From Polyangium sp. y55x31 (GTDB lineage: Bacteria; Myxococcota_A; Polyangia; Polyangiales; Polyangiaceae), in assembly GCF_029946505.1 (NCBI RefSeq), contig NZ_JARZHG010000009.1, positions 1 to 42,926 on the forward strand: DNA of 42,926 nucleotides. The letters run 5' to 3'. Below are positions 16,787-40,243 of this stretch, one piece after another. The notes beneath the pieces were generated by a model that did not search any database, was not told where the DNA came from, and saw only the letters and a program-made list of their open reading frames with translations. Each line of letters begins with the position of its first letter. Positions within the stretch are counted from its first letter, which is position 1. The translations under genes were made by a program, and so were the position numbers.

Positions 16787-16920
16787 CGTCCCGCCCCGAC
16801 GGTGCTTGGAGAAGCCCATGCGTACGTAAGGGTAGAGCGATCGTGCGGGACGGGTCTACAAACTCGCGAAGGCAGGCTACAGAGGAGAGTGGAATCGATG
16901 GGTTAGGGTGGACCGCTGTG

Positions 16921-19259: not shown

Positions 19260-19320
19260 GGAGCACCTCCGGGTAGGGGTGCGCGATCGACGGTCGAGAG
19301 GGCGAGGTCGTGAAGGGGGA

Positions 19321-23256: not shown

Positions 23257-23374
23257 AACCCCTCATCCACTGTAGCAGTACACACTGCTCAATCGTGGAA
23301 GGGGACCTCTACCACGCGCCAGCGGATGGAAGAAGGGCTTTCTGGGGTCCAGCTCCGCGAGGAAGGAAACCCGA

Positions 23375-26300
23375 TCAAGGGTTGGGGCGAGGGGGAGCTC
23401 CACCCTGCCCCTGCCCCAGCGACACGAGCGCCCGCTCCACGTCGGTGCGGTACGCATTGTCCATCGCCGCGACCTCCTTGAAGCGGAGATAACTCTTCAC
23501 GGCCTTGTCCTTTTGCCCCGTGGCGCGCATCGCCTCGCCGTGGAGGAAATACGCGTCGGCGTGCCAGCTCTCCGCGGGGCCGTTCTTCTGCAAGAGCAGC
23601 TCCACGGCCTTGTCGAGCTCCGGCGTGGCCGCGAGCTTGTTGCCGTTCGATTCGAAGATCTTGCCGAGCCGATAATGCCACTCGGCGACCGAGCCATTGC
23701 CCGCGATCGCCTTTTGCCACGCCGTCTGCGCCTCCGGCCAGCGGCCGAGCTCCTGATAACAAAGCGCCATCGTGGCGTGCGCCTCGTGCCGGGAGGGGCG
23801 CTTTTGCAAGGCAATTTCGAGGTCCGCGAGGGCGTCGAGCGTGCGGCCCTGCTTGTGGAGCAAGACGCCGCGTTGCCAGTAGGCGTCCGCGAGCTCGCGG
23901 TCGAGCTCGAGGGCGCGCTTCAAGGCCGCCTCGGCCTTCGGGAACTGACCGAGGACGTTCGCCGCCCAGCCGACATAGAGGAAATACTCGGCGCGATTGC
24001 CGTCGATCTCCGTGGCCCGTTCGAGGAATCGAATGGCCTCGCCCGCTGCCGACGAGCCGCCCTTCAAGAGGAGGGCGCGGCCGAGGAAATGGTTCGCGTC
24101 CGCGGAGCCGGCGCGCTCTTTCAAGACCTCGCGCAGGATCGGCTCGGCCTGCGCCGCGTGGCCCGCCATGACCTGCGCGGAGCCGACCCGCATTTTGAGG
24201 TCGATGTCCGTCGGCGCCTTTTCGAGCGCCGCCGCATACATCTCGAGCGCGCGCTCGCTCTGGCCCGTCTCCTCGTAAAGGAGGCCGCGCTCCAGCGAGA
24301 GGCCGGGGAATTCCTTGTCGACGGTCGCAATCTGGTCGAAGACCTTCTGCGATTCCTCGAACGCGCCCATGCGGCGGAGCGTGACGCCGAGGCGGAAGCG
24401 CGTGCCGAGGTCGTCCTCTTTGGCGAGCGCGGCCTCGAATTCGGTGCGCGCCTCGGGATAACGGCCGGCCTGCGAGAAGACCTCGCCCTTGGCGCGGTGG
24501 AGCGCCGGGAGGTCGGGGAACTTGGCGCTGGCCTCGGCGAGCTTGGCCTGCGCCTCGTCATTGCGGCCGGCGGCCGAGAGGAGCGAGGCGAGCGCGACGT
24601 AGGCCTCGACGGCCTCGGTCTGCGTGCCGCCGAGCTTGATGGCCTGGAGGTAAAGGGCCTCGGCTTCCTTCTTGTTGCCGAGCGCATCCTCGACGCGGCC
24701 GAGCCAGTAGGCGGACGCGGCGGCGTCGGGTTTGTCGGCGCGGAGTTTTTCGGCGAGGGCCTTGGCGTCCTTGAGGCGTTCGAGCGCGAGGAGGGTCTTC
24801 GTCGCGCCGATGCGGGCCGGGAAGCTGGTCTCGTCGACACGCATGGCCTCCTCGAAACGGAGGAGGGACTGGGAGAAGCGGCTCGATCGATAAAAGAGCT
24901 CGCCGTCGCCGATGAGCGCGGCGCCGCTGCGCGGGTCGATCTTGAGCGCAGCGGCGAAGGCCTGTTCAGCCGCGGTGATGCGGGAGCGGGCGAGGTGGAT
25001 GCGGCCGGTTTCGAGGTAGGCCTCGACGAGCTCGCGTTCGCTGGCAGAGGCGCGGATGTCGCCCTCGGCGGTGACCTTGCCGAGGAGGTCGAGGGCGTCG
25101 GTTTCCTTGGCGGGGTCGCGGCCGAGGATCGAGGCGAGCAAGGTGCGCGCGCCGGCGTGCTTGGGAGAAGCTTCGAGCGCGGCGCGGGCGCTCTTCTCGG
25201 CAGAAGCGGCGTCGCCCTTGGCAAGCTCGGCGCGGGCGAGGCCGTAGAGGGAGCGGGCGCCCTTGCGGATGGAGACGGCGCGTTTCCACGCGACGAGCGC
25301 GTCGGCGGTGGCGCCGGAGGCAAGCTCGATCTCGCCGATCAGGACAGCGGCGTCGATGTCGTTCGCGTCGGCGTCGAGCGCGTCCTTGGCCATGCGGCGC
25401 GCCGGATCGAGGCGGCCCGCGAGCGCGTGTTGCGCGGCGACCGCGAGGGTGCGCTCGCGGCTCGGGCTCTCGGTCTGTCCGAGGAGCTGCTTGCCGAGGG
25501 TCTCGTCGTCGCCGCGGCGGCCATGGCGGACGCTTCGGGAGAAGGCGACATACGCGGCATACGCGGCCGTCGCGCGGTGGCGCGGGCGCGAGAGTTGCGC
25601 AGCCTTGGCAGCTGCGAGCGCGCGCGCGGCGGCCGCGGCGGTGTCCTCGTCGAGCGTGGCCTGCGTGTTCTTTTCGAGCCCGCTGAGCGCCTCGGCATGC
25701 GCGGAGGCGTTCACGAGATCACTCACGGCGTGCGCGCCGAACGGGCCGATGTCGGGAAGGAGCGCGAGCGCGCCGCCGCCGATCGCGATAAGGACGGCCG
25801 CGCCGATGCCGTACACACGGCCGCGGCCACGGGGCCGCTTTTCACCGGCGGGCCGCGCGAGGCTCTTCGGGGATCTGTCGCGTTTGGCGAGGGCCGTGTC
25901 GAGCCCCTCGGACTCGCCCGGCGCGAGGTCGACCTCGTCGCCGATGCCCGCGTCGTCCTCCGGAGGAGGCGCGGGCGCGCGGGGCGCGGCGGCCGCGGGG
26001 ACGTCGGCGCGCTGGGTCGCCGCGCCCGTGCTGATCGGCGCGCCCGTCGAGAGGTCCATGTCCGGTTCGCCGAGGGAAAACTCTTCGCCCGGCTTGGAGA
26101 CGGGGGCCGCAGCGCGTGTGCTCGCCGGCGGCGCCGGCGTGGCCGGCTTGGGCGCGGCGGCGGCCTTGTTCGGCGGGGGATCGGCGAACGCGGCGTCGAA
26201 GGCCGCGTCGTCGAGCTCGAAGCCGGCCGTCGCGGACGCGGCGGCGCGCGGCCGCGACGCGGGAGATGCCGCAGGCGCAGGCGGCGGCTCACTCGCGAGG

Positions 26301-27736
26301 GGAAACTCGAGCTCGCCGAAGTCGCCGCCCGAATCGAAGGCCGCGATCGAGGCGGCCGGGACGGTCGCGCCGGGATCGAGCTTGCGGTTCGCGTCGCCCC
26401 GGGACGCGGCCCCCGCAGGCGGCGGCAGCTCTTCGGGCGCGGGCAGGTCGAGCTCGCCGAAGGCGCCGAGATCGGGCGCCGGGAGATCGATCTCGCCGAA
26501 GTTGCCGAGGTCGGAGTCGGCGGAGACGGCGGGCAGGTCGAAGCTGCTGAGCGGTTTTCCGCGCAGCGCCGTCATCGCGCCGGAGGAGCGGTGCCGCGGG
26601 CCGGGCGCGGCCGGCGCGGGGAGATCGGCAGGCTCGTTCTTCGCGGGAGCGCGCGCGGGCGCGGGGAGATCGATCTCGCCAAACCCCTTCGCCGCAGGCG
26701 GCGCGGGGCGCGCAGCGGCGGGGCGCGCCGGCGCGGGGAGATCGATCTCGCCGAACCCCTTGGCCGCGGGCGCGGGGCGCGCGGGGGCGGGCAAATCGAG
26801 CTCGGGCGTGCTCTTCTTCGCGGGGCGCGCGGGGCTCGGCAGATCGATCTCCGGCGCGGGCGCGTTCTTCGCCGCGGGACGAGCGGGCGCGGCGAGGTTC
26901 TCTTCCGGCTTCGGCGGCGGCGGCTTCGGCGCGGCGGGGCGCGCGGGCGAGGGCAGATCGATCTCGCCGAACCCCTTCGCCGCGGGGCGCGCGGGCGCGG
27001 TCGGTTTGTCGTCCGGCTTCGGAGGACCAGGCTTCGCCGCGGCCGCGCGCGTGGGCGACGGCGACGGCGACGGTAGATCGACTTCGAGCGAGGCCGTCAC
27101 CGGGGTCGCCATCTGCCGGACCGTCGGCTTGTTCGAGGGTACGCCGGGGGGCAGCTCGATCGCCGCGAGCGCCGCGTCCTCCTCCTCTTCATCATCGAGG
27201 GGGAATTCGTTCACGACCGCGGCCATCTGCCGCACGGTCGGCTTCGCGGGCATGGGCAGGTCGACGAGCTCTTCCTCTTCGGCCGCGGGCAAGGCGGCCG
27301 GCATCTGCCGCACCGTCGCCTTCGCGGGCGAAGGAAGATCGATCTCGCCGAACCCCGGATCGTCATCACCGCCCCACAGATCGAGCTCCGTGGCTTCCGC
27401 GGGCTTCGGCGCGGGCGCAGCGGGCTTCGGGGCGGGCGCGGGCGCAGCAGGCTTGGGCTTCGCAGGGAGCACGGGCGGCTTCGGCGCGACCGGAGCGGCC
27501 GGCGCTTTGCCCAGCGCAGGGCGCGGCAGGAGCGGCTCGGTGCCACCTTTCGCGCGCGGCGCGACCGGCGAGGGGAGATCGATCTCCTCGGCCTCCGCCG
27601 GCTCCGCAGGTTTGCGGACCAAGAGGCTCGTGCCGCACTTCGAGCAGCGCATCTTGAGCCCCGTCGCCGGGATCCGTCGTTCCTCCACCTGGTACGGCGA
27701 CCTACAGGAGTCGCACTCGACCTTGACCATGCTCAT
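23375..27736 (-). CDS. MJ0042-type zinc-ribbon / Pro-Ala-rich repeat linker / single-TM / large TPR-repeat protein (~1453 aa). Its architecture resembles the myxobacterial GltJ(AgmX) class.
   Basis: Track ORF 23375..27781. Preferred start is MSMVKVECDSCRSPYQVEERRIPATGLKMRCSKCGTSL (CxxC…CxxC zinc ribbon at the extreme N-terminus). The ~600-aa linker carries 8 or more copies of GFGEIDLP[AS]PARPA and 3 copies of KPTVRQM. A TM helix follows (VYGIGAAVLIAIGGGALALLP), then ~800 aa of TPR-like repeats. Confidence 0.75.
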   Translation of the reverse strand: MSMVKVECDSCRSPYQVEERRIPATGLKMRCSKCGTSLLVRKPAEPAEAEEIDLPSPVAPRAKGGTEPLLPRPALGKAPAAPVAPKPPVLPAKPKPAAPAPAPKPAAPAPKPAEATELDLWGGDDDPGFGEIDLPSPAKATVRQMPAALPAAEEEELVDLPMPAKPTVRQMAAVVNEFPLDDEEEEDAALAAIELPPGVPSNKPTVRQMATPVTASLEVDLPSPSPSPTRAAAAKPGPPKPDDKPTAPARPAAKGFGEIDLPSPARPAAPKPPPPKPEENLAAPARPAAKNAPAPEIDLPSPARPAKKSTPELDLPAPARPAPAAKGFGEIDLPAPARPAAARPAPPAAKGFGEIDLPAPARAPAKNEPADLPAPAAPGPRHRSSGAMTALRGKPLSSFDLPAVSADSDLGNFGEIDLPAPDLGAFGELDLPAPEELPPPAGAASRGDANRKLDPGATVPAASIAAFDSGGDFGELEFPLASEPPPAPAASPASRPRAAASATAGFELDDAAFDAAFADPPPNKAAAAPKPATPAPPASTRAAAPVSKPGEEFSLGEPDMDLSTGAPISTGAATQRADVPAAAAPRAPAPPPEDDAGIGDEVDLAPGESEGLDTALAKRDRSPKSLARPAGEKRPRGRGRVYGIGAAVLIAIGGGALALLPDIGPFGAHAVSDLVNASAHAEALSGLEKNTQATLDEDTAAAAARALAAAKAAQLSRPRHRATAAYAAYVAFSRSVRHGRRGDDETLGKQLLGQTESPSRERTLAVAAQHALAGRLDPARRMAKDALDADANDIDAAVLIGEIELASGATADALVAWKRAVSIRKGARSLYGLARAELAKGDAASAEKSARAALEASPKHAGARTLLASILGRDPAKETDALDLLGKVTAEGDIRASASERELVEAYLETGRIHLARSRITAAEQAFAAALKIDPRSGAALIGDGELFYRSSRFSQSLLRFEEAMRVDETSFPARIGATKTLLALERLKDAKALAEKLRADKPDAAASAYWLGRVEDALGNKKEAEALYLQAIKLGGTQTEAVEAYVALASLLSAAGRNDEAQAKLAEASAKFPDLPALHRAKGEVFSQAGRYPEARTEFEAALAKEDDLGTRFRLGVTLRRMGAFEESQKVFDQIATVDKEFPGLSLERGLLYEETGQSERALEMYAAALEKAPTDIDLKMRVGSAQVMAGHAAQAEPILREVLKERAGSADANHFLGRALLLKGGSSAAGEAIRFLERATEIDGNRAEYFLYVGWAANVLGQFPKAEAALKRALELDRELADAYWQRGVLLHKQGRTLDALADLEIALQKRPSRHEAHATMALCYQELGRWPEAQTAWQKAIAGNGSVAEWHYRLGKIFESNGNKLAATPELDKAVELLLQKNGPAESWHADAYFLHGEAMRATGQKDKAVKSYLRFKEVAAMDNAYRTDVERALVSLGQGQGGAPPRPNP

Positions 27737-27920
27737 GCCTTCGAGGGGCCCTGGGGCGCGCGATCGTTCCGCGTTGCTCACTTCTACCAGGGTTTGAGGC
27801 TTCGCGGCTCTTTTGCGACACGAGGGGGGCGGCGAACGCGGGCCGAGCAGGCAGCCGAGCAGCGCGGATTCGTCCTCTCGCTTCCGCTGGGCCGGGGAAA
27901 TGTGCTAACGCGCTCGCCCC

Positions 27921-28511
27921 ATGCAGAAAGCGACCGCCTTCCTCTTCGCTGCGTTGGTCCTCGGGGCCATCGCGCTCGTCGTCGTTCCGCGCGGTCGCAG
28001 CGGAAGTTCGTCCACGGAGACGGCGGCAGCAGACGCAGGCACGCCGAGCGACGCAGGCGCAGCGACGACGGCGGACGCAGGCGCGGAGCCCTCGGACGCA
28101 GGCGCGAGCGGCGAGCCCGGCAGTGAACCGGAGCCCGGAGGTCCGGTCGACGCGGGCGGGACGTTGCTCCTCACGGGCGAGGCGCCGCCGCCACTCGCGG
28201 GCGAGGCGCCGAAGTCGGTCGTGTTCGGGGTGATCCTCGTGCAGTACAAGGGCGCGCAGGGCGCTCTGCCGAACGCGCGGCCCCGCGAGGAGGCGCTGAC
28301 GCTGGCGAAGCAGCTCGCCGAGGAGGCGAAGACGGACTTCAAGGCGGCGGTGGCGAAGGGCGACAAGGGCTCGATGGAGAACGCGGGGCGACTGCCGCGC
28401 GGAATTTTGGAGCCTGCGCCGGAGTATGTTCTCTTCAGCCTGGCCAAGGGCGCGGTGAGCGAGGTCGTCGACACGCCGCGCGGCTACTGGATCGTGCAGC
28501 GTATCGAGTAG
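27921..28511 (+). CDS. Parvulin-type (PpiC) peptidyl-prolyl cis-trans isomerase domain protein with an N-terminal signal/TM anchor, 196 aa.
   Basis: Track ORF with an ATG start. The C-terminal half (GVILVQYKGAQGA…EEALTLAKQL…SMENAGRLPRG…PEYVLFSLAKGAVSEVVDTPRGYWIVQRIE) follows the parvulin rotamase motif order (HILV … GG.LG.F.RG.M…F…GE.S.PV.T.FGYHII). Confidence 0.6.
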   Translation: MQKATAFLFAALVLGAIALVVVPRGRSGSSSTETAAADAGTPSDAGAATTADAGAEPSDAGASGEPGSEPEPGGPVDAGGTLLLTGEAPPPLAGEAPKSVVFGVILVQYKGAQGALPNARPREEALTLAKQLAEEAKTDFKAAVAKGDKGSMENAGRLPRGILEPAPEYVLFSLAKGAVSEVVDTPRGYWIVQRIE

Positions 28512-28536: not shown

Positions 28537-28833
28537 ATGGCGCAGATCGACATCCAGAGGCCCCACGGCATGAGCGAGGACGCAGCGCGGCGTCGCGCCG
28601 AGGATCTGGCGAGGCGCCTGGAACAACGCCGCGGGGTGCGCTGGCGCTGGGAAGGCGACGAGCTGCGTCTCGACGCACCGAGCGGTCCGGCAAAAGGGAC
28701 GCGGGGGTCGGTGCGCGTGACCGCAGAGGCCGTACGGATCCGGGTGGAGCTGCCGCTCTTGCTGCGCGCGATGCGCCCCGTGGTCGAGTCGAAGCTGCAC
28801 GAGAAGCTCGACGCGATGCTCGGCAAGGCCTGA
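28537..28833 (+). CDS. Polyhydroxyalkanoic-acid-system family small protein (PHA_gran_rgn-like DUF), 98 aa.
   Basis: Track ORF; MAQIDIQRPHGMSEDAARRRAEDLARRLEQRRGVRWRWEGDELRLDAPSGPAKGTRGSVRVTAEAVRIRVELP resembles that family. GAAGGGGA lies 8 nt upstream. Confidence 0.5.
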   Translation: MAQIDIQRPHGMSEDAARRRAEDLARRLEQRRGVRWRWEGDELRLDAPSGPAKGTRGSVRVTAEAVRIRVELPLLLRAMRPVVESKLHEKLDAMLGKA

Positions 28834-28867: not shown

Positions 28868-29330
28868 CCAGGGGTTGTCCACCCCTGGACCCGGACCAGC
28901 GCAAGCGCTGGACTCGGGGTTGATGAACTGCGCGGTGCGCAGTTCATCAAACAGCCGGTGGCAAGACCGGCGACGACCCTGCCAGCCACGACGGCAGCGC
29001 GGCTCGACAGGCCACACCCCGTCGCCGCGTGAGACGAACCCTCGCGGTCTTGCCACGGGCCCGTCGGAGAAACTGCGCATCGCGCAGTTTCTCCGCCTTC
29101 GGTCCAGGCCGTGCCTGGTCCGGGGTGCAGGGGGCGGACAGCCCCCTGCTGGGGTACGGGGCAAAGCCCCGCTCCGCGCCTCCCTGTGGAACCCCTGAGC
29201 GAGCGAGCAGGCGAAGCTGGGGCATGGGGGCGCGGGCGGGGCCCTTGCCCACGATCGGGGTGGCCGTGGCGAACGCGTGCCGCGGGGGAATGGCCGCGCG
29301 TCGCGGCATGGTGTGGGATCGTCGCGATCC
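28868..29330. repeat. Cluster of 8-10 perfect GC-rich palindromes/hairpins in the ~550-nt leader upstream of the giant TPR gene pair. It includes two covarying long palindromes: TTGATGAACTGCGC-ggt-GCGCAGTTCATCAA (28920..28950) and GAGAAACTGCGC-atc-GCGCAGTTTCTC (29067..29093).
   Basis: Seen in the sequence. Further hairpins: CCAGGGG-N7-CCCCTGG (28868..28888), CCAGCGC-aa-GCGCTGG (28896..28911), CCAGGC-cgt-GCCTGG (29104..29118), CAGGGGGC-ggaca-GCCCCCTG (29128..29148), GGGGC-aaa-GCCCC (29157..29170), GCCGCG-cgt-CGCGGC (29293..29307), GGATCG-tcg-CGATCC (29316..29330). Confidence 0.6.
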
Positions 29331-29389: not shown

Positions 29390-32300
29390 ATGGACCAGAA
29401 ACCCGTCTCCGCGGGAGGCGCGTCGAGCCCAATGACGGTAGAGACACCCATGCCCACGGGGCAGGCCGAGGATGCGGCGGCCTTCCTCAATCGTTTACGG
29501 TCCGAGCACGCCGCGCAGGAGGACAACGCGCTCCAAGCGCTGCTCCTGCACGAGTGCGGCGTCCTCGAAGAGAAGCACGGGGAGGAGCCGTCCGCCGCGC
29601 GGGACTACCTCGCCGCCTTCAACGCGGATCCGCAGAACCGCGAGTCGCTCGAGGCCCTCGTCCGGATCTTGACCCGACGCAAGTCCATCAAGAACCTCGG
29701 AAAACTGCTCGAAGCGCTGACACGCGCCTCCGTGACCCCGGAGGAGCGCGCTCGCGCGTTCTGGGAGCGCGCTGCGTTCCTGCAGGACTACGAGCAGAAT
29801 CTTCCGGGCGCAAAAGAAGCGCTCGAAGAGGCTGTCGGCGCGAGCCCCGAGGACCCGACGCCGTGGCTCGAGCTCGAGCTCATCGCGGCGAAGGACGGTG
29901 ATCTGCCTGGCCGCATGCGCGCCATCGAAGCGCGCGCCGAGCTCGCCTCCGATCCGACGTGGAAGGCGTTCCTGTTCATCGAGCTTGCGGAGCTGTCGGC
30001 CAAGGCTGGCGACACGCAGCGCGCGTACGATCTGATCGACGCCGCCGCCGCGCTGGATGGTCAGGGCCGTTTCCGGTCGCAGGTGACGCTCGAAGCGATC
30101 GCGGCGCGGGAGGACAACACGACGGCGCTCGCGCGGGCCCTCGAAGGTCAAGCGCAGCTCATCGAGGACGCCCTCGAGGACGCAGAGCGCGGCGACGCGA
30201 GCGGCGTGCCTCGCTACGCGCGGCGCCCCGAGTACGCGGCCGACGCGTGGCTGCGCGCGGCAGAGCTGAAGCGGCGCGCGGGTGATCAAGAAGGCTGGGT
30301 GAAGCTCCTCGCGCGGGCTGCCGAGCAGCTCCCGCAATCGTCGCTCATCGCGCGGTCGCGGCTCGCCTCGCTGGAGACGAACGGCGACGCGAAGGGCGCG
30401 GCCGATCTCGCGCGGGCCGAGCTTGCGCGCGGCACGCCGGGCCCGGCTGCGGCGGCGCTCTGGCTGCGCATCGCCGAGGCGGCGATGCTCGACAACGATC
30501 GGGACGGCGCGCTCGCCGCGCTGCGCAGCGCGCTCGAAGCGGACCCGGCGTCGATCATGGCGCGTGCGCTCGAGCTCGATCTGCTGAGCGACGCGCAGGA
30601 TCCGGCGGCGCTCGCGCGATCGCTCGAAGCCTCCGGCGCGTCGTGCCCGACGAACGAGGCGAGGGCGCGCGCGGAGATCATCGCGGCCTACGTGTGGGCT
30701 TGCCAGGCCGGTGAGTCGGACGCCGCGAAGGCGGCGCTCGGCCGGGCCGCGGCGCTCGGCACGCCGGCGCCGCTCCTCGCGCGGATCGCCCGCACCCTCG
30801 CCTCCGTCCGCGGCGACGCGGCGTGGTACGAGCAGGTGACGGCGGAGCTCGTGGGCAGCGGCGCGGAGCCGGGCGAAGAGGCGAGCCTCTGGTTCGAGCT
30901 CGGCCGGAGCCGCGCGCTCCGGGGCGACGCGGATGGCGCGGCCGAGGCGTTCGCGAAGCTCGCGACGCTCGAAGGCGACGCTTCGACGTGGCTCGGCCGC
31001 GTGCTCGCGGCGTATGCGCTCGGCGCGAAGAAGCCGGCGGACGGCGAGGTGATCACGTTCCGCCCGATCGCGGCGACGATCGAGGAGCTCGCGAAGGTCG
31101 AGACGGACCCGAGCCTCGCGCGTGGCCTCTGGGTGGTCGCTGCGCTGCGCAGCACGCGCGCGGGCAACCTCGATGCGGCGCGCGCGCGGCTGCGCGAGCT
31201 GCACGAGGCGCAGCCGTCGGACGAGGTGGTGGCGCTCTTCCTCGCGGACCTCGAGCGTCGCGCAGGGGACCTCGCGGCCGCGTCGAACATCCTGTCGGCG
31301 TGCGCGACGGCGACCGAGGACATCGACCTCGGCGCCGCGCTCTACCTGGAAGCTGCGCTTCTCACGTGGCGGATCGGCGATCGGCAGAAGACGATCGAGC
31401 TCATCGAGCAGGCGCGCGGCAGCGCGTCGAAGGCGGCTGCGGCGCTGCTCGCGTGGGCGCTGCGCGGGGCTGATCCCGACAGCCTCGACGGTCGTCGCCG
31501 CGCGCTGCTCACGGCGGCGGAGGCGGGCGCGGATCCGGCGAGCATCGCGATCGAGCGCTTCGGCCTGGAGGTGGGTCAGGGCGAGGCGGGCGATCGCGCC
31601 GAGGCGCTCACGGCGCTGGAGACGGCCGAGGCCGAGGGCTCGGGCGACATCACGGTCGCTGCGGGGCTCGCGCGCTTGACGTGGCCCGACGCGCAGAGTG
31701 ATCGGGCGGCGATCGATCGCGCGCTCGATCGTCTGGAAGACCAGGGCGACGAGGCGACGGCGATCGCCCGCGCCGAGGCGTACCGGCTCGCGCGCGTGGT
31801 CGATCAGGACCCGGGCGCGGCGGTGACACGCGCGGCGGCCTGGGCGGACGCGGAGCCGAAGCTCTACGCCGCGCTCGAGTGGCTCGGGTCGGCGCTCGCC
31901 GCGAAGGATCGCGAGGCCGAGGTGGCCGCGCGACAGGCGGTGGGTTCGTTCCTCGACGACGAGCCGTGGTCGGCGATGGATGCGTCGGCCGCGCTCGTGG
32001 CGATGCTGGATCAGCCGAGCACGCCGCAGCCCTTGCTCGCGGGGACGTCGGATGCGACGCGCCTCGCGAACCTGGAGCTCGCGATGCCCGGCTGCGATCC
32101 GCGCCGCCGCGCCTTCGCCCTGCAGAACGTGGGCGGGGCGCTCGGCGAGGAGGCGGGCAGCGACGCGTCGGCGCTCTCCGGCTGGTCGGAGCTCGCGGCG
32201 GGCAACGTGGAGGCGGCGCTCGCCACCTTCCGCGCGGCCGTCGAGCGTCGCCAGGACGACATCGTGTCGTGGGAGGGCGTGCGCGCGGCGAGTGAGGCGC

Positions 32301-34192
32301 TCGGCGACCACGTCTCCACGGCGCTCGCGCTCGCGCAGCTCGGCGCCCTCAGCAAGGACGACGCGCGCGGCGCGGCGTTCTGGGAGTCCGCGGGCATCAT
32401 CCTGCTCGATCACACCGACGCGCACGACGACGCGGAGATCGCGTTCGCGCGGGCGTTCGATCGGGATCCGAGCCGGTCGGTCGCCTTCGACAAACTCTTC
32501 CGCCGCGTACGTTCGCGCAACGAGGACGACAAGCTGCTCGACATCATCGGGCGCCGCCTCGACGTGGCCGACGACGAGGCGGAGATCGGCAAGCTCTTCT
32601 GGGAGCGCGCGCGCGTGCTCCGCAAGAAGGGTGATCGCGAGGGCGCGCTCTCGGCGCTCGAGAACGTCACGATGCTCGAGCCCGATCACGTCGGCGCGCT
32701 CGCGCTCGCCGGCGAGATCTCGATCACGATGGGCAAGTTCGCCGAGGCGGCGGACCTCCTCGGCCGGCTCTCGGGCATCGGCGAGGCGCCGGCGCAGCAG
32801 CGGCTGATGTCCGGCGTCGCGGCGGTGGACATCTACGAGAACAAGCTGAACGCCCCGGAGAAGGCGCTCAAGGTGCTCGTGGGTCTCCACGAGGCCGGCC
32901 TGTCCACGCCGCCCGTGCGCGAGCGCCTCGCGCGCGTCGCGGCGAAGACGGGCGCGTGGTCGCGCGCGACGGGGATCCTCGAGCAGCTCATGCAGGAGCG
33001 TGACAAGCGCGAGGGTCGCATGGAGGCCGCGCGGCTCGCGATGGCCATCTGGCGCGACAAGCTGAACGATCCGCTCAAGGCCGAGAGCTCGGTCGTGAAG
33101 CTGCTCGACGAGTCGCCGGACGACGGCGAGGCGCTCGATCTCGTGCTGACCACGAGCTACGACGCGGCGCTCCGGCAGCGCTTGCTCGGGCGCGCGAAGA
33201 GCGTGCTCGTGCAGAAGCTCTCCGAGGATCCGTGCGACGCCGACCGCGTCGAGCGGCTCGCGAAGATCGCGCAGGCAGGGCAGGACGCGGCGCTCCGGCA
33301 GGCGACGCTCGGCTGCCTCGTCTCGCTCGGTCGCGACGACGACGCGATCTCGACGGAGCTCAAACGGATCGACGGTCGCGTCGCGACGCGGCCGCAGATC
33401 GTGCTCGACGCGAAGGCCATGGCCGAGATCGCCGATCCGGAGGACAACGGCCCGATCGCGGAGCTCTTCGTGCTCATGGCCGAGACGGTGACGCTCGCGC
33501 TCGGCCCGACGCTCGGCTCGCTGAACGTCGGCAAGAAGGAGCGCATCGACTCGCGCGGCGGCCACCCGCTGCGCGTAGCGGTCGCCGAGTGGATGGGCGC
33601 GGTGGGCTTCGAGGGCGACTTCGAGCTCTACGTGGGCGGCCCCGAGCCGAAGGGCGTGCACGGCGTCGCCGGCGAGGTGCCCGCGATCGTCGTCGGGTCC
33701 GGGATCACGACGCCGCTCGACGCGGCGGCGCGCTCGGCCATCGCGCGCACGGTCTTCGCCCTGCGGCGCGGGATCACCTCGCTCCGCACGCGCGACGAGG
33801 CCACGGTCGCGTCCGTGGTCATCGCGGCGTGCAACGAGGTCGACATCAAGGTCGCGAACCCCGGCTACGCGGTCTACGGCGAGATCCAGCGCGCGGTGCA
33901 CAAGGAGATCTCGCGCAAGATCCGCAAGAGCATCGGCGAGGTTTGCCAGAAGGTCGTTTCGAGCAAGCAGGACGCGCGCGCGTGGACGAACGCGGCGCGT
34001 CGCAGCCTGGATCGCATGTCGGTGATCGCCGCCGGCGACGTCTCGATCGTACTGAGCGACATCCTGAGCGTGCCGCGAGATCAGCTCGGCTCGGTGGTCA
34101 CCGAGAGCGAGCGCTCGCGCCGCCTTCTCTCGTTCGTGCTTTCCCCCAGCTACCTCGAGCTGCGCAAGAAGCTCGGCATGGGTGTCCGGTGA
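29390..34192 (+). CDS. Giant TPR-like / alpha-helical repeat protein A (1600 aa) with a conserved C-terminal globular domain. Function unknown.
   Basis: M94 (MDQKPVSAGGASSPMTVETPMPTGQAEDAAAFLNRL) of track ORF 29111..34192. The upstream 93 codons lie in the palindrome leader and are not coding. Long TPR-like helical hairpins (…LFWERARVLRKKGDREGALSALENVTMLEPDHVGALALAGEISITMGKFAEA…). Confidence 0.7.
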   Translation: MDQKPVSAGGASSPMTVETPMPTGQAEDAAAFLNRLRSEHAAQEDNALQALLLHECGVLEEKHGEEPSAARDYLAAFNADPQNRESLEALVRILTRRKSIKNLGKLLEALTRASVTPEERARAFWERAAFLQDYEQNLPGAKEALEEAVGASPEDPTPWLELELIAAKDGDLPGRMRAIEARAELASDPTWKAFLFIELAELSAKAGDTQRAYDLIDAAAALDGQGRFRSQVTLEAIAAREDNTTALARALEGQAQLIEDALEDAERGDASGVPRYARRPEYAADAWLRAAELKRRAGDQEGWVKLLARAAEQLPQSSLIARSRLASLETNGDAKGAADLARAELARGTPGPAAAALWLRIAEAAMLDNDRDGALAALRSALEADPASIMARALELDLLSDAQDPAALARSLEASGASCPTNEARARAEIIAAYVWACQAGESDAAKAALGRAAALGTPAPLLARIARTLASVRGDAAWYEQVTAELVGSGAEPGEEASLWFELGRSRALRGDADGAAEAFAKLATLEGDASTWLGRVLAAYALGAKKPADGEVITFRPIAATIEELAKVETDPSLARGLWVVAALRSTRAGNLDAARARLRELHEAQPSDEVVALFLADLERRAGDLAAASNILSACATATEDIDLGAALYLEAALLTWRIGDRQKTIELIEQARGSASKAAAALLAWALRGADPDSLDGRRRALLTAAEAGADPASIAIERFGLEVGQGEAGDRAEALTALETAEAEGSGDITVAAGLARLTWPDAQSDRAAIDRALDRLEDQGDEATAIARAEAYRLARVVDQDPGAAVTRAAAWADAEPKLYAALEWLGSALAAKDREAEVAARQAVGSFLDDEPWSAMDASAALVAMLDQPSTPQPLLAGTSDATRLANLELAMPGCDPRRRAFALQNVGGALGEEAGSDASALSGWSELAAGNVEAALATFRAAVERRQDDIVSWEGVRAASEALGDHVSTALALAQLGALSKDDARGAAFWESAGIILLDHTDAHDDAEIAFARAFDRDPSRSVAFDKLFRRVRSRNEDDKLLDIIGRRLDVADDEAEIGKLFWERARVLRKKGDREGALSALENVTMLEPDHVGALALAGEISITMGKFAEAADLLGRLSGIGEAPAQQRLMSGVAAVDIYENKLNAPEKALKVLVGLHEAGLSTPPVRERLARVAAKTGAWSRATGILEQLMQERDKREGRMEAARLAMAIWRDKLNDPLKAESSVVKLLDESPDDGEALDLVLTTSYDAALRQRLLGRAKSVLVQKLSEDPCDADRVERLAKIAQAGQDAALRQATLGCLVSLGRDDDAISTELKRIDGRVATRPQIVLDAKAMAEIADPEDNGPIAELFVLMAETVTLALGPTLGSLNVGKKERIDSRGGHPLRVAVAEWMGAVGFEGDFELYVGGPEPKGVHGVAGEVPAIVVGSGITTPLDAAARSAIARTVFALRRGITSLRTRDEATVASVVIAACNEVDIKVANPGYAVYGEIQRAVHKEISRKIRKSIGEVCQKVVSSKQDARAWTNAARRSLDRMSVIAAGDVSIVLSDILSVPRDQLGSVVTESERSRRLLSFVLSPSYLELRKKLGMGVR

Positions 34193-34224
34193 GCCACGAC
34201 TCTGGAGCAAAGGATCAAGGTCCC

Positions 34225-37200
34225 GTGAGCGAGCCCCAAGACGAGATCGACCTCGCAGAGGACGCGATCGAAGACGACGACGACGACGCTGCGACCATCA
34301 TGGCGCACGTGCCCGACGAGCTGATGGCGTCGCTGCGCAACTCCCGCAGCGAGCCCGAGATCGGCGAGGTGACCGCGCGCATGAAGGAGGACGTGCGGCA
34401 CGAGATGCCCACGAGGCCCGAGGATGACGGGCTCGTGGAGGCCCTCGTCGACGAGACGAAGACGCCGCCGGCCGCGGACACGAGCGCCCACGACGCGGTG
34501 ACGCCCGCAGGGCCTGCCGTCGTCGAGACGCCAGTCGCCGCGGCCGTGGAAGAGCTGGAAGTCGAGCCCGAGGACGACGTCCCGGCCGCGCCGTCGCGTC
34601 GCGAGCGCGCGCCCGTCGCGGGAGCGCCGAAGTTCGACGACGAGCAGGACGCGAGCGCGCACCTCGTGCGCACGCAGCAGCGTGACGCGTGGGCCGAGCG
34701 GGCCGCATGGCTCCGCGCGGAAGCGGAGGCGATGGAGGACAAGGCTGCGCGCGCGAGAGCGCTCGTGGCCGTGTCCGAGATCTACGCGATGGCGGGCGAG
34801 GAGCAGACGGCGCGCGCGATCGCGGCAGAGGCGCGCGATCTCGCGCCGAGCTCTCCGCTCGCGCATCGCCAGATCCGCGGCTTGCTCGCGCGTGATCAGG
34901 ACTGGCAAGGCACGATCGAGGTGCTCGACACCGAGGCGCGCATCGCGCCGACGCCGGCCGCGCGCGCCCACGCAGCCGTGCTCGGCGCCGAGGTCCTGCG
35001 CATCCGCCAGGAGGACGAGGAAGGCGCGCAGAAACGCATGGACCTCGCGCAGCGCGCGCTGCCCACGGATCCGCGCCCGCACGTGCAGCGCTTCTGCGAG
35101 GCGCTCGGCGGCGAAGGCGACGCCTTCACGAAGGTGCGCGCGCCCGAGACGAGCGAGCTTTCGGCGCTGCGCGACGCGTTCACCCAGGTCGCGATCCATC
35201 GCGGCGTGGTGCCGCGTGGCCTCCGCGGTGTCGTCTCCGCGTACGACGCGCTCCTCCGTGCGCGCGCGGCGCTCGAAGCGGGCGACGTGTCCCTCGCGGT
35301 GTCGAGCCTCGGCCGCCTGCGCAGCACCGCCTCCCTCAAGGGCGGCGCGGGCTGGCTCGCGGGCATGCTCGCGGCCGCGAGCAAGGACACGCGGCCGGGC
35401 TCGATCGAGGCCCTGCGCGGCGCGCTCGACGGCACGCACGACGCCGACGCACGGCGCGCCCTCGCGGCCCGCGCGATCGAGCTCGGCGACGCCGCCGCGG
35501 CGCGCGCGGCCGTCGAGGGCAGCGACACGATCGCGTTCTCGGCTGCCGATCGCCTGTCGTTGACGGCGCTCATCGGAGGCTCGCGTGAGCTCTTCGAGCA
35601 GGCCGTCGACGCGGCCGCGGGCGACGACGAGCTCGCGCCGCTGCTCGCTGCGGCGAGCGCGGCCTCCCGCGAGGCCGACACGGCTTCGAGCAGCGTCGTC
35701 GGCACGGGCAGCCCGAGCGCGCGTGCTTCCGCGGCGCTCGGCCGCGCCCTCGCCGACGCGCGCACCGACGGCAAGCCCCTCGGCGAGAACGACGCGCTCG
35801 CCGCGGCGATCCTCGGCTACACCGAACACGCCGCCGATGGCGGCACGGGCCGCGCGCTCAAGCTGGAGCTCGACCTCGAGTCGAAGGCCGGCGCGAGCGT
35901 CGCTCGCGCCGTCGCCGCGTGGCGCGGCGCCGAGGACGGGGATCGCGACAGCGCGCTCGCGGGCGCGCTCCTCGCCGAGCTCGCGGGCGACGCGGAGCTC
36001 GCGGCCGAGGGGTACGATCGCGCGCGCCAGGCCGATCCGGCCCACGAAGGCGCCACGCGCGCTCGCGCGACGGGCGCCGACGCCACCACCGCGTCGAGCG
36101 TCCTCGCCGGCCTCGCGCAGTCGATCGAGCCGGGCACGCGCGCCGCGCTCTTGCTCACGGAGGCGGCGATCCGCTTGCTCGAGGTCGAGGTCCCCGACAC
36201 CTCGATCGACGACGAGCGCGACAAACTCCTCCGCGGCGCGGCCGAGATCGACGCGCGCCTCCCGCTCTCCGTGCACCTCGGCGAGCGCACGGCGCGCGGC
36301 GTGGGTGATCGCGACGGCCTCATCGAGTGGCTCCACCTCCGCCGCCAGGCGAGCGAGGATCCGATCGAGCAGGCCCGCGACTTCGTGCGCGAAGCGCTCA
36401 TCACGCCGGAAGGCGCCGCGCACGCGGCAGGCCTGCTCGCGCAGGCGCTCACGGCGCGACCGGACGACATCGGCCTGCGAGAGCTCTACGAGCGCCTCTC
36501 GCCGGAGCGCCCCGCGGATCGCGCGGCCTGGCGCGCCGAGCGTGCGGCGGCCTCTGCGGGCTCCGACGCCGCGCGCTTCTCGCTCGAAGCCGCGCTCGAG
36601 TACGAGCGCGACGGCGACCTCGAGAAGGCCGCGGCCCTCGCGCGGCAAGCCATCGCTGCGGGCGAGACGCTCCTCGCGCCGCTCTGCGCGTACCGCGCCG
36701 CGCTCGCGGGCCACGGCACGAGTGATCTCGTCGACGGCCTCTTGCAGTACGCCCGCGCGACGGAGGACTCCGTCGAGCGGCTCCAAGCGTACGAGCGCCT
36801 CGCCGAGCTCGACGAGATCGGCCGCGGCGACGCGGCGAGCGGCCTGCTCTGGCGCCGCACGATCCTCGAAGAGACGGAGGCGCACCTGCCGACGCTCCGC
36901 CGCGTCGCGAGCGCCCTCATCGCGGGCGGCCGCGACGAGGAGCTCGAACCGGTCGTCTTCACGCTCGCGAGGACGCTCGAAGGCCCCGAGGCCATCGCGC
37001 ACGCGCACCTCTCCGCGCGCCTTCGCCTCCGCATCCACGGCTGGGACGAGGCGCGCGAGCCGGTCGAGATCGCCTACCGCAACGAGCCTCGTGGGCTCTG
37101 GGCGCTCCGCCAGATGGCGGCGCACGCCCGCGCGCGCGGCGACGAGGCGACGGCGCTCGAAGCCGACCTCGAGCTCGCGAACCGCACCGAGCGCGCCTCC

Positions 37201-39228
37201 GAGATCGCGACGCTCTCGCTGCGCGCCGCCGAGTCCGCGACGCGCGCGGGGCAACCCGAGAAGGCCCGCGAGCTGCTCGAAAAGGCGATCGAGCTCGTGC
37301 CTGGTCACCTCGTGGTGCACCTCGAACGTGCCCGCGCCCTCGAACAGAGCGGCGACTTCGTCGGGGCCGCGACCGCGCTCGAAGCTGCCGCGCAGACCAG
37401 CGCGACGGCCGAGGAGCGCGTGCGCAACCTCTACCTCGCCGCGGTCCTCTGGGCCGACAAGACGAGCGAGACCGAGCGCGCGCGCAGCGCCTTCGAGAGC
37501 GTCTTCGCGGTCGATCCCTCGTACCTCGACGTCTTCCAGCGCTTGCAGGCGATCTACGTCGCGAGCGGCGCGCGGGCCGAGCTCGCTGCGCTCCTCGAAC
37601 GTCGCCTCGACGCCGTCACCGATCCGGCCGAGCGTGTCGAGATGGAGGTCCTGCGTGGCCGCGCGCTCGCCGACGTCGGCGATGCGGCGGCGGCGAAGCA
37701 GGCCCTCGCGGCGGCGCTCGATCAGAACCCCGACCACGTCGAGGCTCTGACGACGTTCGCCGACGTCTGCGCGAAGGAAGACGACTGGGGCGGCGCGGAG
37801 CAGGCCTGGATCCGGCTCGCGCGCCTCGTCGCGGAGCCCGAGCGCCAGGCCGAGCTCTACATGCGCCTCGGCGACCTCTACAACGGCCCGTTGCCGAACG
37901 CCGAGCGCGCCGAGCTCTCCTACCAGGAGGTCTTGAAGCGTTTCGCGAACAACGAGGCTGCGCGTGAGCGCCTCGTCGACCTCTACAAGAATCTCGGCGA
38001 CACGGCGAAGGCCCTCGAGCAGCAGACGATCCTCATCAACAACGTCGAGGAGCCCGAGGCGAAGTGCCGTCGCACGACGCAGCTCGCCGAGATCTACGAG
38101 GCGATGGGCGACCTCAAGAAGGCCGAGCAGACCTTGCTCCAGGCGCGCAAGACCTGGCCCAAGGACGACGTCGCGCTCGGCGCGCTCGCGAGCTTCTACC
38201 AGCGCACCGATCAGGCGCAGGCTGCGAACGTCCTGCTCGATCGTGCCGTCGCCGACGCGCGCCGCGCGCTCGGCACCGGCCGCTTCGAGCCGTACCTCTT
38301 CAGCACCGTCGCCACCGTCGCCGATCTGCGCGGTCGGCCCGAGGTCGCGCGCATCGCGCGTGGCAGCGTGTCGGCCCTCGACGGCGGCGCGGTCGATCTC
38401 CCGGGTGCGGGCGCCGCGGCCGGCGACCTCGCGCTCGACGAGCTCCTCGCGCCCGACGTGATGACGCCTGCGTTCCGCGACCTCCTGCAGCGCACGGGGC
38501 CGATGCTCGACACCGCCGTGCCGTTCGACGTCACGTCGGTCCGCGCGACGCCCTTCCCGCCGCCGCAGGCGCACCTCGCCGAGGAGATCAAGGCCCTCGC
38601 CCACGCCTACGGGATCGAGGATCTGAAGGTGCTCCAGTCGTCGACGCTCGGCTCGGTCTGCATCGCGGCGAGCGCGCATCCCCCGACGATCGTGCTCGGC
38701 GCGCCGCTCGTTTCTGCGACGAACGAGGCCGTTCGCACGTTCCTCGTTCACCGCGCGCTCAAGGTCGTCCAGGCGAACGCCACGGCCTTCGCGCGCACTG
38801 CGCCGATCGACCTCTGGCCGCTGCTCGCCGCGTACCTCAAGGCGCTGAGCCCCGGGTTTGCCCCGCAAGGTGTCGACCCGGCCAAGCTCAACGATGCTTC
38901 GACGCGCGTCGCCAAGGCGCTGCCGGCGAGCCTCGATCCGCAGGTGCGCACGCTCGCGACCGACGTCATCGCCAACATCGGCAACCGCGCCTCGACCCTC
39001 AACACTGCGGTGAACGGCTGGGGTGCGCGCGCGGGCTTGCTCGCGGTCGGCGATCCCAACATCGCGCTCACGGGCATTGCCTGGGCCGGCGGCCACACGA
39101 ACCAGCCTCCGGCCTCGGGCAAGGAGCGCCTCACCTGGATCGGCCGCAACGCCGAGGCCCGCGAGCTCATCGTCTTCTCGGTGAGCGACGCCTACGCCGA
39201 CGCCCGCGCGCGCCTCGGCCTCGACTGA
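34225..39228 (+). CDS. Giant TPR-like / alpha-helical repeat protein B (~1667 aa). It is a paralogue of protein A and has an acidic N-terminal segment.
   Basis: In-frame part of track ORF 33232..39228. Candidate starts are GTG 34189 (GTGA overlap with the stop of A), GTG 34225 (preferred: AAGGA 11 nt upstream, GC3 rises after it) and ATG 34300. The C-terminal domain aligns with that of protein A (A: …EWMGAVGFEGDFELYVGG…AIVVGSGITTP… versus B: …LAHAYGIEDLKVLQSS…TIVLGAPLVSATN…). Confidence 0.7.
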   Translation: MSEPQDEIDLAEDAIEDDDDDAATIMAHVPDELMASLRNSRSEPEIGEVTARMKEDVRHEMPTRPEDDGLVEALVDETKTPPAADTSAHDAVTPAGPAVVETPVAAAVEELEVEPEDDVPAAPSRRERAPVAGAPKFDDEQDASAHLVRTQQRDAWAERAAWLRAEAEAMEDKAARARALVAVSEIYAMAGEEQTARAIAAEARDLAPSSPLAHRQIRGLLARDQDWQGTIEVLDTEARIAPTPAARAHAAVLGAEVLRIRQEDEEGAQKRMDLAQRALPTDPRPHVQRFCEALGGEGDAFTKVRAPETSELSALRDAFTQVAIHRGVVPRGLRGVVSAYDALLRARAALEAGDVSLAVSSLGRLRSTASLKGGAGWLAGMLAAASKDTRPGSIEALRGALDGTHDADARRALAARAIELGDAAAARAAVEGSDTIAFSAADRLSLTALIGGSRELFEQAVDAAAGDDELAPLLAAASAASREADTASSSVVGTGSPSARASAALGRALADARTDGKPLGENDALAAAILGYTEHAADGGTGRALKLELDLESKAGASVARAVAAWRGAEDGDRDSALAGALLAELAGDAELAAEGYDRARQADPAHEGATRARATGADATTASSVLAGLAQSIEPGTRAALLLTEAAIRLLEVEVPDTSIDDERDKLLRGAAEIDARLPLSVHLGERTARGVGDRDGLIEWLHLRRQASEDPIEQARDFVREALITPEGAAHAAGLLAQALTARPDDIGLRELYERLSPERPADRAAWRAERAAASAGSDAARFSLEAALEYERDGDLEKAAALARQAIAAGETLLAPLCAYRAALAGHGTSDLVDGLLQYARATEDSVERLQAYERLAELDEIGRGDAASGLLWRRTILEETEAHLPTLRRVASALIAGGRDEELEPVVFTLARTLEGPEAIAHAHLSARLRLRIHGWDEAREPVEIAYRNEPRGLWALRQMAAHARARGDEATALEADLELANRTERASEIATLSLRAAESATRAGQPEKARELLEKAIELVPGHLVVHLERARALEQSGDFVGAATALEAAAQTSATAEERVRNLYLAAVLWADKTSETERARSAFESVFAVDPSYLDVFQRLQAIYVASGARAELAALLERRLDAVTDPAERVEMEVLRGRALADVGDAAAAKQALAAALDQNPDHVEALTTFADVCAKEDDWGGAEQAWIRLARLVAEPERQAELYMRLGDLYNGPLPNAERAELSYQEVLKRFANNEAARERLVDLYKNLGDTAKALEQQTILINNVEEPEAKCRRTTQLAEIYEAMGDLKKAEQTLLQARKTWPKDDVALGALASFYQRTDQAQAANVLLDRAVADARRALGTGRFEPYLFSTVATVADLRGRPEVARIARGSVSALDGGAVDLPGAGAAAGDLALDELLAPDVMTPAFRDLLQRTGPMLDTAVPFDVTSVRATPFPPPQAHLAEEIKALAHAYGIEDLKVLQSSTLGSVCIAASAHPPTIVLGAPLVSATNEAVRTFLVHRALKVVQANATAFARTAPIDLWPLLAAYLKALSPGFAPQGVDPAKLNDASTRVAKALPASLDPQVRTLATDVIANIGNRASTLNTAVNGWGARAGLLAVGDPNIALTGIAWAGGHTNQPPASGKERLTWIGRNAEARELIVFSVSDAYADARARLGLD

Positions 39229-39244: not shown

Positions 39245-40243
39245 TTGCCCTCGCGCCTCTTCCCCTCCGCGGCGGCCCTCCTCTTCGGGGCCGCCGCCTG
39301 CTCCTCCCCGGACGCCTCGCCTGCGCCCACCCCGCCTGCGTCTGCGGCTGCTGCGCCGCCTGCGCCCGCTCCCCTCCCCTCGGCTGCGCCTCCGCCCGAA
39401 CCTTCCCGCTGCGCCGCCGTCGCCTGCGCCTCCATCGAGCGCTGCGACGAGGCCACGGGCGCGTGCGTCCCGCATTGCCCTGCGGGCGAGGTTTACATCC
39501 CGAAAACCGGCCCCGATGGGTTCGTCATGGGCAAAGGTTTTACCTTGAACGGCGGCGCGCGCCGCCTCCGCAAGGGACACCAGCCCGACTCCGATCGCCC
39601 CCACCGCGTCGTCCTCACCCGCCCGTTTTGCATGGACGAGACCGAGGTCACCGTCGCCGCCATGAAACAATGCGTCGACGCGAAGGCCTGCGACCCGCCG
39701 AAGACCCTCGAAGTCTGGGCGAACTATCCCCGCCGCCCCGATCACCCCGCCAACGAAGTCTCCTGGGACAAAGCCAAGAAGTATTGCAAGGCCCAAGGAA
39801 AGGACCTCCCCACCGAAGCGCAATGGGAATGGGCGGCGACCGGCGGCGACGGACGCAAATGGCCCTGGGGCAATGACGAACCCACCTGCGAGCACGCCGA
39901 TTTCACGATCGGCGTCCTCGTCTCGCCCGGCGGCGACTCCGGCTGCCACGGCGGCGGCACCTCGCCCGTGCGTTCGCATCCGAAGGGCGACCGCGCCTGG
40001 CCCACGGGCACCCTCCACGACCTCGCGGGCAACGTCTGGGAATGGTGCGACGACACCTACGCCAAATATGGCGCGGACCCGGTCACGGATCCCCATGTGC
40101 AAAAGCCCGGCGTCCTCGTGCACGTCGTGCGCGGGGGCGGCTGGAATCGCTCGAACCTCGGCATCCAGACGGCCTTCCGCGGCGCCGCCATTCACACCTA
40201 CGAGGTCCCCGGGCTCGGCTTTCGTTGCGTCCGGAACCCGTGA
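39245..40243 (+). CDS. Formylglycine-generating-enzyme (FGE)-sulfatase / SUMF1-family domain lipoprotein, 332 aa.
   Basis: Track ORF (TTG start, so the start is uncertain). Signal with …LLFGAAAC lipobox. Family motifs: …VSWDKAKKYC…, …GNVWEWCDD…, …VVRGGGWN…, …GFRCVRNP. Confidence 0.8.
   Translation: MPSRLFPSAAALLFGAAACSSPDASPAPTPPASAAAAPPAPAPLPSAAPPPEPSRCAAVACASIERCDEATGACVPHCPAGEVYIPKTGPDGFVMGKGFTLNGGARRLRKGHQPDSDRPHRVVLTRPFCMDETEVTVAAMKQCVDAKACDPPKTLEVWANYPRRPDHPANEVSWDKAKKYCKAQGKDLPTEAQWEWAATGGDGRKWPWGNDEPTCEHADFTIGVLVSPGGDSGCHGGGTSPVRSHPKGDRAWPTGTLHDLAGNVWEWCDDTYAKYGADPVTDPHVQKPGVLVHVVRGGGWNRSNLGIQTAFRGAAIHTYEVPGLGFRCVRNP

Follow-up and report, generated by a model that had tools for sequence, protein, structure and literature searches.

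The question raised by this locus is what two adjacent giant genes of a myxobacterium encode, and whether their products belong to one system. The window, i.e. the whole stretch of DNA analysed here (42,926 nucleotides, positions 1 to 42,926 of contig NZ_JARZHG010000009.1 of Polyangium sp. y55x31), harbors two long plus-strand open reading frames (ORFs), termed A and B in the following. A first-pass annotation made from the letters alone had described them as a translationally coupled pair of paralogues, built almost entirely of tetratricopeptide repeat (TPR)-like helices and sharing a C-terminal domain; both ORFs are indeed present. A and B form a conserved two-gene module with a fixed A-then-B order, which persists throughout an entire bacterial order. 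Profile comparison indicates that they are paralogues over almost their whole length, and structure prediction assigns to the end of each a peptidase fold of the M48 type that has lost its catalytic motif. We lean towards regarding the two proteins as subunits of a single cytoplasmic scaffold. The features that carry this reading are:

29390–34192, plus strand: gene A (ORF, translation, orthologues)
33515–34189, plus strand: predicted M48-like pseudo-peptidase domain of A, approximately residues 1376–1600
34189–34192, plus strand: GTGA, in which the B start codon overlaps the A stop codon (sequence)
34189–39228, plus strand: gene B (translation, orthologues)
38506–39225, plus strand: predicted M48-like pseudo-peptidase domain of B, approximately residues 1440–1679

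A genome scan with A retrieved relatives in 178 species, and the loci examined were the best 80 of these 178, all from Polyangiaceae or Polyangia. Since A and B are both 44–98% identical over the full length in these 80 genomes, the ORFs are not products of chance. Neighbouring genes were counted by tblastn of the window proteins against the loci, with those loci as denominators that had enough flanking sequence. B lies directly downstream of A at all 71 evaluable loci, as would be expected of orthologue pairs that are conserved together. The whole region is collinear with scaffold 12 of P. jinanense, where the protein corresponding to A is 98% identical.

The junction between the two genes is conserved as well. 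The A stop codon TGA (34190–34192) overlaps a GTG at 34189, from which B comprises 1679 amino acids. An [AG]TGA overlap start in the B frame was flagged by script at 56 of 68 related loci. Most of the remaining 12 carry the same GTGA or ATGA junction, which escaped the script since the match to B sets in right there; the overlap is thus found at nearly all of the 68 loci, with ATGA as the form in the more divergent clades. A 4-nt overlap is also found in Sandaracinus amylolyticus and at the distant locus L085. Therefore, the start of B is placed at 34189, the first of two options given previously, and the second, a GTG at 34225 supported by a ribosome-binding site, is overruled. The conservation of the overlap also argues for selection on coupling. 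The start of A is less fixed. The first ATG (29390) gives 1600 amino acids and a later one (29432) 1586. The shorter form is likelier, because the orthologues open with a conserved MTxxTP that corresponds to ATG 29432, which is preceded by GGAGG at 29414–29418; NCBI models of A in close relatives have 1580 amino acids. The last residues of A (...FVLSPSYLELRKKLGMGVR, 34141–34192) belong to its best conserved parts. As the same nucleotides must also hold the re-initiation signals of B, this segment may be under a dual constraint, on protein and on translation.

The relationship of A and B extends far beyond the C-terminus, to which their alignment had been confined before. With BLASTP the similarity is weak and collinear (A1001–1249 with B1084–1330, E 6e-6; C-termini E 0.11). 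When the families were compared by hhalign (20 A and 18 B orthologues), A174–A1598 aligned with B170–B1679 without rearrangement, over approximately 1320 columns (99.7%, E 7e-26). Taken separately, the solenoid part reached E 1.1e-23, and a 179-column alignment of the C-terminal ~230 residues had E 6.7e-5. In addition, a hidden Markov model (HMM) of the B C-terminal domain matched the C-termini of the A family in 20 proteins, with a best E of 1.5e-14, so that the alignment of the two C-terminal domains is confirmed by profile methods. A and B are therefore paralogues over almost the whole length.

According to Pfam matches above the cut-offs, the solenoids are partly made of TPR and ARM_TT21 repeats (TPR_19, ANAPC3 and ARM_TT21_5th in A; TPR_8, TPR_19, TPR_17 and TPR_14 in B, the latter at residues 1011–1335). 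These matches cover only parts of both proteins and none falls in the last ~300 residues. The description as almost entirely TPR-like therefore holds directly for the matched parts, and for the remainder it follows from the profile alignment. The main difference between A and B is the N-terminus. In A, the first ~170 residues are highly conserved and structured. In B, approximately residues 1–165 (34189–34683) are acidic and disordered, with 43 D/E versus 12 K/R among the first 160 residues, in agreement with the strongly acidic character noted before. Hence A is composed of a TPR/ARM-like alpha-solenoid followed by the C-terminal M48-like domain, and B of an acidic disordered N-terminus, an alpha-solenoid and the same type of C-terminal domain. 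The two go back to an ancient duplication of a giant protein composed of a TPR/ARM-like solenoid (~1250 amino acids) and a C-terminal M48-type fold.

That A and B share a C-terminal domain of about 250 residues was recognized in the first-pass annotation, which overlooked its M48-like pseudo-peptidase nature. AlphaFold2 models were obtained from shallow alignments of 26 A-family and 23 B-family sequences; the predicted local distance difference test value (pLDDT) was 85.9 for the A domain and 94.7 for the B domain, with predicted template modelling scores (pTM) of 0.79 and 0.93, respectively. The elements succeed each other identically in the two models: one helix precedes a three-stranded sheet, after which come a long central helix and a helical bundle. 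The structural matches of the B domain were HtpX (10.3), 3c37 (8.7), BepA (8.5), ZMPSTE24 (7.2) and Ste24 (7.0), and in the predicted structures both C-terminal domains show the zincin/M48 catalytic-domain fold. The central helix follows the sheet, the place where zincins carry HExxH. In A this helix (33722–33772, residues 1445–1461) reads AAARSAIARTVFALRRG, without any His; across the family it is AAARSAIAR(E/T)VFALRRG. R1453, F1456, L1458, R1460 and G1461 do not vary among 71 orthologues, and a Glu follows the invariant Arg in 62 of the 71. The corresponding helix of B (~38725–38772) contains VRTFLVHRALKVVQ; here, R1522 and K1525 are invariant and the single His is replaced in divergent orthologues. 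An invariant Arg/Phe-rich helix (A-R-E/T-V-F-A-L-R-R-G in A, F-L-x-x-R-A-L-K in B) thus stands in the place of HExxH. HExxH is likewise absent from distant relatives, in which the helix reads Q[RK]F[LI]IGRA. Pfam Peptidase_M48 did not match whole A or B, nor any of 26 C-terminal domains at E values up to 10, where just scattered single matches to other families were obtained, and a sequence search of the PDB with the domain profile returned zero matches. On the models, the C-terminal domains of A and B are M48-fold pseudo-peptidases that have lost HExxH.

The fold raises the question of whether A and B could be active quality-control metalloproteases of the BepA/HtpX type, with their TPR parts recruiting substrates. 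Such a role would fit the presence of BepA, itself a combination of M48 and TPR, among the top structural matches, the automatic JGI name "predicted Zn-dependent protease" carried by some orthologues and the Glu next to the invariant Arg in most A orthologues. It is nevertheless very improbable and was rejected, as HExxH is missing from A, B and the distant relatives, the only His of B is unconserved and the Pfam model is unmatched even at E 10. BepA/YfgC (COG4783) of E. coli is a periplasmic protein of ~490 amino acids with an active HExxH, in which the M48 domain lies N-terminal to a short TPR domain. A and B differ from it in size (~1600 amino acids), in the reverse domain order with the solenoid first, in the lack of HExxH, in the occurrence as a coupled paralogue pair and in their predicted cytoplasmic location; neither a BepA-like signal peptide or periplasmic location nor an N-terminal M48 domain was found in them. 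At most, A and B would act in the manner of a BepA confined to binding. The minigluzincins (projannalysin, proabylysin, selecase), which are small, active zinc proteases, and HtpX are, together with BepA, the nearest structural relatives of the domain. In comparison with HtpX and the minigluzincins, the A and B domains add a C-terminal helical bundle of ~120 amino acids, and the Arg/Phe-rich helix replaces the metal site. Binding modules that evolved from enzymes typically keep the fold, lose catalysis and conserve another surface. The A and B domains resemble such pseudo-protease scaffolds in all three respects, i.e. the retained protease fold, the lost catalytic residues and the conserved surface residues. 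A pseudo-M48 family of this architecture was not found in Pfam, NCBIfam, the PDB sequences or the literature searched.

Relatives outside the Polyangiaceae show how old the arrangement is. When the A C-terminal domain was taken as the query of an exhaustive HMM search, 721 representatives of clusters had E values of 1e-3 or below, and among the 150 best listed every full-length protein (>1400 amino acids) was A-like, down to ~29% identity. Divergent A-like proteins come from Sandaracinaceae. In Sandaracinus amylolyticus, an A-type gene (1635 amino acids) overlaps a B-type gene (2210 amino acids) by 4 nt. Two deeper pairs (1970 and 2269 amino acids; 1869 and 2284 amino acids, the latter with a 4-nt overlap) also have the A-type gene first and the B-type gene second, each ending in an M48-like domain. 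Elsewhere, A and B are fused. P0458, P0459 and P0460 (2699–2744 amino acids) and P0465 (2613 amino acids) consist of a complete A with its pseudo-peptidase domain, an acidic linker and a B-type solenoid, and the conserved A tail (...LSPEHRFIRAELGM...) continues in frame into the acidic linker. A 465-aa gene following a fusion was considered as a detached B C-terminus and rejected, since it encodes an unrelated polytopic membrane protein. In Myxococcia, single-gene relatives of ~1686 amino acids are found that are about equidistant from A and B and lack HExxH. Examples are that of Hyalangium minutum (WP_044185552.1) and one from a Myxococcaceae metagenome-assembled genome, both in uninformative contexts. 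An orthologue of the single-gene relative probably exists in M. xanthus and would be genetically tractable. Judged by sequence, the pairs of Polyangia and the single genes of Myxococcia are one superfamily across Myxococcota. The two representative loci are:

10001–18235 of locus L087: gene for the fusion protein P0460
10001–15061 of locus L086: single gene of Hyalangium minutum (WP_044185552.1), alone among unrelated housekeeping genes

Taken together, a reading that we hold somewhat more probable than its opposite is that A and B are two subunits of one cytoplasmic scaffold, an approximately 1:1 heteromer with non-catalytic, peptide-binding ends. We infer the heteromer from the duplication, the fixed order, the overlap, the fusions, the cytoplasmic location and the M48 fold without catalytic motif. 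No signal peptide or transmembrane segment was found when both proteins were checked for hydrophobic segments, and A and B are thus predicted to be cytoplasmic. The overlap would allow termination-reinitiation coupling and, by this, roughly equimolar synthesis of the two proteins, which would then assemble. Separate proteins that are fused elsewhere tend to interact (the Rosetta-stone argument), and by this argument the natural A-B fusions support a physical association. In the complex, the dead-protease domains might have kept their peptide-binding groove and serve as docking or dimerisation modules, and the solenoids could bind further clients. More speculatively, the Arg-rich former active-site groove may bind acidic linear motifs.

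In the window, several further genes are located upstream of A, and an FGE-sulfatase-family gene follows B:

23375–27781, minus strand: zinc ribbon (ZnR)-transmembrane (TM)-TPR gene (Pfam Zn_ribbon_4 and many TPR families)
27921–28511, plus strand: parvulin-type peptidyl-prolyl isomerase-like gene (Pfam Rotamase, Rotamase_2, Rotamase_3)
28537–28833, plus strand: small PHA_gran_rgn gene (PF09650, E 7e-24), between the isomerase gene and A
between the PHA_gran_rgn gene and A: spacer of 557 nt
39245–40243, plus strand: FGE-sulfatase-family gene (Pfam E 1.7e-39)

Among the genes upstream of A, that for the parvulin is the most constant (70 of 72 evaluable loci), and it had been overlooked as a candidate member of the module. 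The ZnR-TPR gene, whose presence upstream of A on the minus strand was described correctly, was found there at 50 of 61 loci with a high-scoring segment pair of at least 250 amino acids; several further loci have a match to the ZnR only at this position. PHA_gran_rgn is located upstream of A at 48 of 72 loci, and at most loci of the clade with ~47% identity it has no match. A BLAST comparison of all loci with the ORFs from three reference loci revealed no conserved neighbours besides ZnR-TPR, the isomerase, PHA_gran_rgn, A and B. The spacer between PHA_gran_rgn and A contains two perfect palindromes AACTGCGCnnnGCGCAGTT (28926–28944 and 29071–29089), each within a longer hairpin. None is expected by chance, and the window has no further copies. 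A pair of terminators, an operator or a REP-like element would be conceivable.

The ZnR-TPR protein consists of an MJ0042-type zinc ribbon, a cytoplasmic Pro-rich linker of ~600 residues, one TM helix and a stretch of ~750 residues with canonical TPRs, presumably periplasmic as judged by topology. It matches TIGR02098. The linker carries ten [DE][ILVF]DLP motifs, mostly FGEIDLP(S/A)P (25800–27600, residues ~60–460), and orthologues in divergent Polyangiaceae keep 2–10 copies. DEIDLAED occurs in the N-terminus of B, and comparable acidic stretches (D-x-D-[WL]) are present in B-type proteins from other lineages. The FGEIDLP motifs are candidate ligands of TPR or pseudo-peptidase domains. The parvulin has an N-terminal hydrophobic segment and is predicted to be membrane-anchored by this helix. 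With less support than the heteromer itself, the scaffold of Polyangiaceae might be tethered to the inner membrane via the divergently encoded ZnR-TM-TPR protein, with the FGEIDLP motifs of its linker and the EIDL of the B N-terminus as possible ligands, and would thereby be connected with TPRs in the periplasm and with the membrane-anchored parvulin. Of the envelope-spanning scaffold module suggested in the first-pass annotation, the coupled cytoplasmic pair and the co-occurrence with ZnR-TPR stand, and the FGE gene is to be omitted.

Several observations weigh against the heteromeric scaffold and its membrane tether. The genes upstream of the Sandaracinus amylolyticus pair are different and include neither ZnR-TPR nor the parvulin, and the deep pairs lack these two genes, too. 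The predicted co-occurrence of ZnR-TPR with A and B is hence restricted to Polyangiaceae; it cannot be essential to the core function, and the coupling to ZnR-TPR and parvulin can only be a lineage-specific elaboration. The fusions stop short of the second pseudo-peptidase domain. The single-gene relatives of Myxococcia indicate that the partner paralogue is not always needed. On the methodical side, the register of the HExxH position was taken from topology instead of a superposition residue by residue; that HExxH is lacking altogether is independent of this register, so that the A and B domains cannot be canonical metalloproteases. Finally, profile scores can be inflated by Ala/Leu/Arg-rich TPR sequence, which is unlikely here because collinearity spans ~1320 columns.

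A refinement of the scaffold reading would link the locus to gliding motility. A and B would then be paralogues of GltI/AgmK, the ZnR-TM-TPR protein a GltJ analogue and the whole the platform of a second Agl-Glt-like machine. GltI is a giant cytoplasmic TPR protein of 3822 amino acids with a large helical C-terminal domain, its gene adjoins gltJ, and GltJ is a bitopic membrane protein with an MJ0042 zinc ribbon (PMC11761067; PMC3169522). The same adjacency of a ZnR protein and giant TPR proteins is seen at the A/B loci. Moreover, the GltI homologues listed for Sorangium cellulosum are two adjacent TPR proteins in the glt cluster, sce2920 (1774 amino acids) and sce2921 (2081 amino acids) (PMC3169522), a split pair that resembles the layout of A and B, which in turn exist in fused form. 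The single-gene relative of Hyalangium minutum is named "Adventurous gliding motility protein K" in UniProt, but this name is automatic. Against the link, neither glt nor agl genes were found in the window, within 10 kb at related loci with inspected gene content, or beside the deep pairs and the single-gene relatives. The A/B locus of strain So ce56 (~0.87 Mb) encodes proteins of ~1600 and ~2000 amino acids, unlike sce2920 and sce2921, and it appears distinct from the glt cluster because of these sizes. Neither A nor B matched any NCBIfam gliding-motility model. The GltJ model fits the ZnR protein in the ribbon only (31.6 bits versus a cut-off of 450) and a GYF domain is absent; compared to GltJ, the protein is twice as long, carries FGEIDLP repeats and has, in place of GYF, a large and presumably periplasmic TPR domain. 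Literature searches yielded no description of a TPR/pseudo-M48 family or of the GltI C-terminal domain. As a whole, this refinement seems unlikely. The likeness of A and B to AgmK/GltI is one of analogy and lies in the giant size, the cytoplasmic TPR architecture with a helical C-terminal domain and the neighbouring MJ0042 zinc-ribbon gene; the locus is another one and lacks glt/agl neighbours. GltI/AgmK is the nearest architectural analogue. Still more doubtful is the extended version in which A and B, the FGEIDLP-bearing ZnR/TM/TPR protein and the parvulin form a previously undescribed envelope-spanning machine of Polyangiaceae, the dead M48 domains read short acidic linear motifs (FGEIDLP and the EIDL of the B N-terminus) and the superfamily includes GltI/AgmK as a fused A-B-type pair.

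The remainder of the window was mapped by third-position GC, Pfam and NCBIfam (the DNA of the window is GC-rich, 65–75%):

1–16855, minus strand: near-complete type VI secretion (T6SS) cluster
3965–5815, minus strand: TssF
6295–6861, minus strand: Hcp
6892–8478, minus strand: TssC
8415–9014, minus strand: TssB
9077–10372, minus strand: TssA
10174–14295, minus strand: TssM
14232–15002, minus strand: TssL
14995–16347, minus strand: TssK
17007–18740, plus strand: ORF of 578 amino acids without Pfam or NCBIfam family
18753–19502, minus strand: ORF of 250 amino acids without Pfam or NCBIfam family
19636–23262, minus strand: ORF of 1209 amino acids with a lipoprotein-like N-terminus (GIGAALVVWVVALLASCSA), without Pfam or NCBIfam family
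after the FGE gene, minus strand: HAD hydrolase gene

The T6SS cluster and the FGE-family gene, which starts 16 nt after B, might suggest that A and B are an accessory or effector module of the secretion system or the partner of an FGE-sulfatase lipoprotein. Synteny speaks against both, and the notion, hardly credible, was rejected. The FGE gene had been counted as a member of the module; it follows B at only 4 of 63 evaluable loci, all in the closest Polyangium genomes. Essentially no conservation, even within Polyangium, was found for the ORFs that separate ZnR-TPR from the T6SS cluster: the 1209-aa ORF has a match in P. jinanense only, the 578-aa ORF a weak one at a single other locus and the 250-aa ORF none. 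No T6SS gene was seen at related loci, a weak test given flanks of 10 kb and a cluster 12.5 kb away, and Pfam detected no PAAR, VgrG, Rhs or MIX features in A or B. A defence system was considered and dismissed as well, as PADLOC gave no match for A, B, the ZnR-TPR protein and two unknown neighbours. The FGE-family ORF does directly follow B and has, as described, a lipobox-like N-terminus (LLFGAAAC, read by eye); it has a TTG start and scores far under the cut-offs of the GldK, EgtB and PvdO models. At the beginning of the window (1–2823, minus strand), a protein of at least 941 amino acids with apolipoprotein-like helical repeats is truncated by the window start.

The label "TPR repeat protein" is usually the end of the matter for giant TPR proteins of myxobacteria; here, two of them turn out to be a strictly conserved, coupled and sometimes fused pair. 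A new pseudo-peptidase domain family and a conserved two-gene module, built from known parts, belong to a superfamily across Myxococcota that is absent from the libraries and literature searched. In databases, its members carry unspecific or erroneous names ("tetratricopeptide repeat protein", "hypothetical", "Exonuclease SbcC", "predicted Zn-dependent protease"). Even if the function should be mundane, the annotations as "Exonuclease SbcC" and "predicted Zn-dependent protease" are corrected and a new domain model is gained. Testable hypotheses are a heteromer of 1:1 stoichiometry, motif reading by the pseudo-protease domain and a ligand role of the FGEIDLP repeats, and the interest of the family would be higher if the motif-reader mechanism or the GltI link were confirmed. 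Whether GltI is a fused member of the A/B family could be answered by one profile comparison. If it is, the construction of the cytoplasmic platform for myxobacterial gliding would for the first time become approachable at the level of domains.

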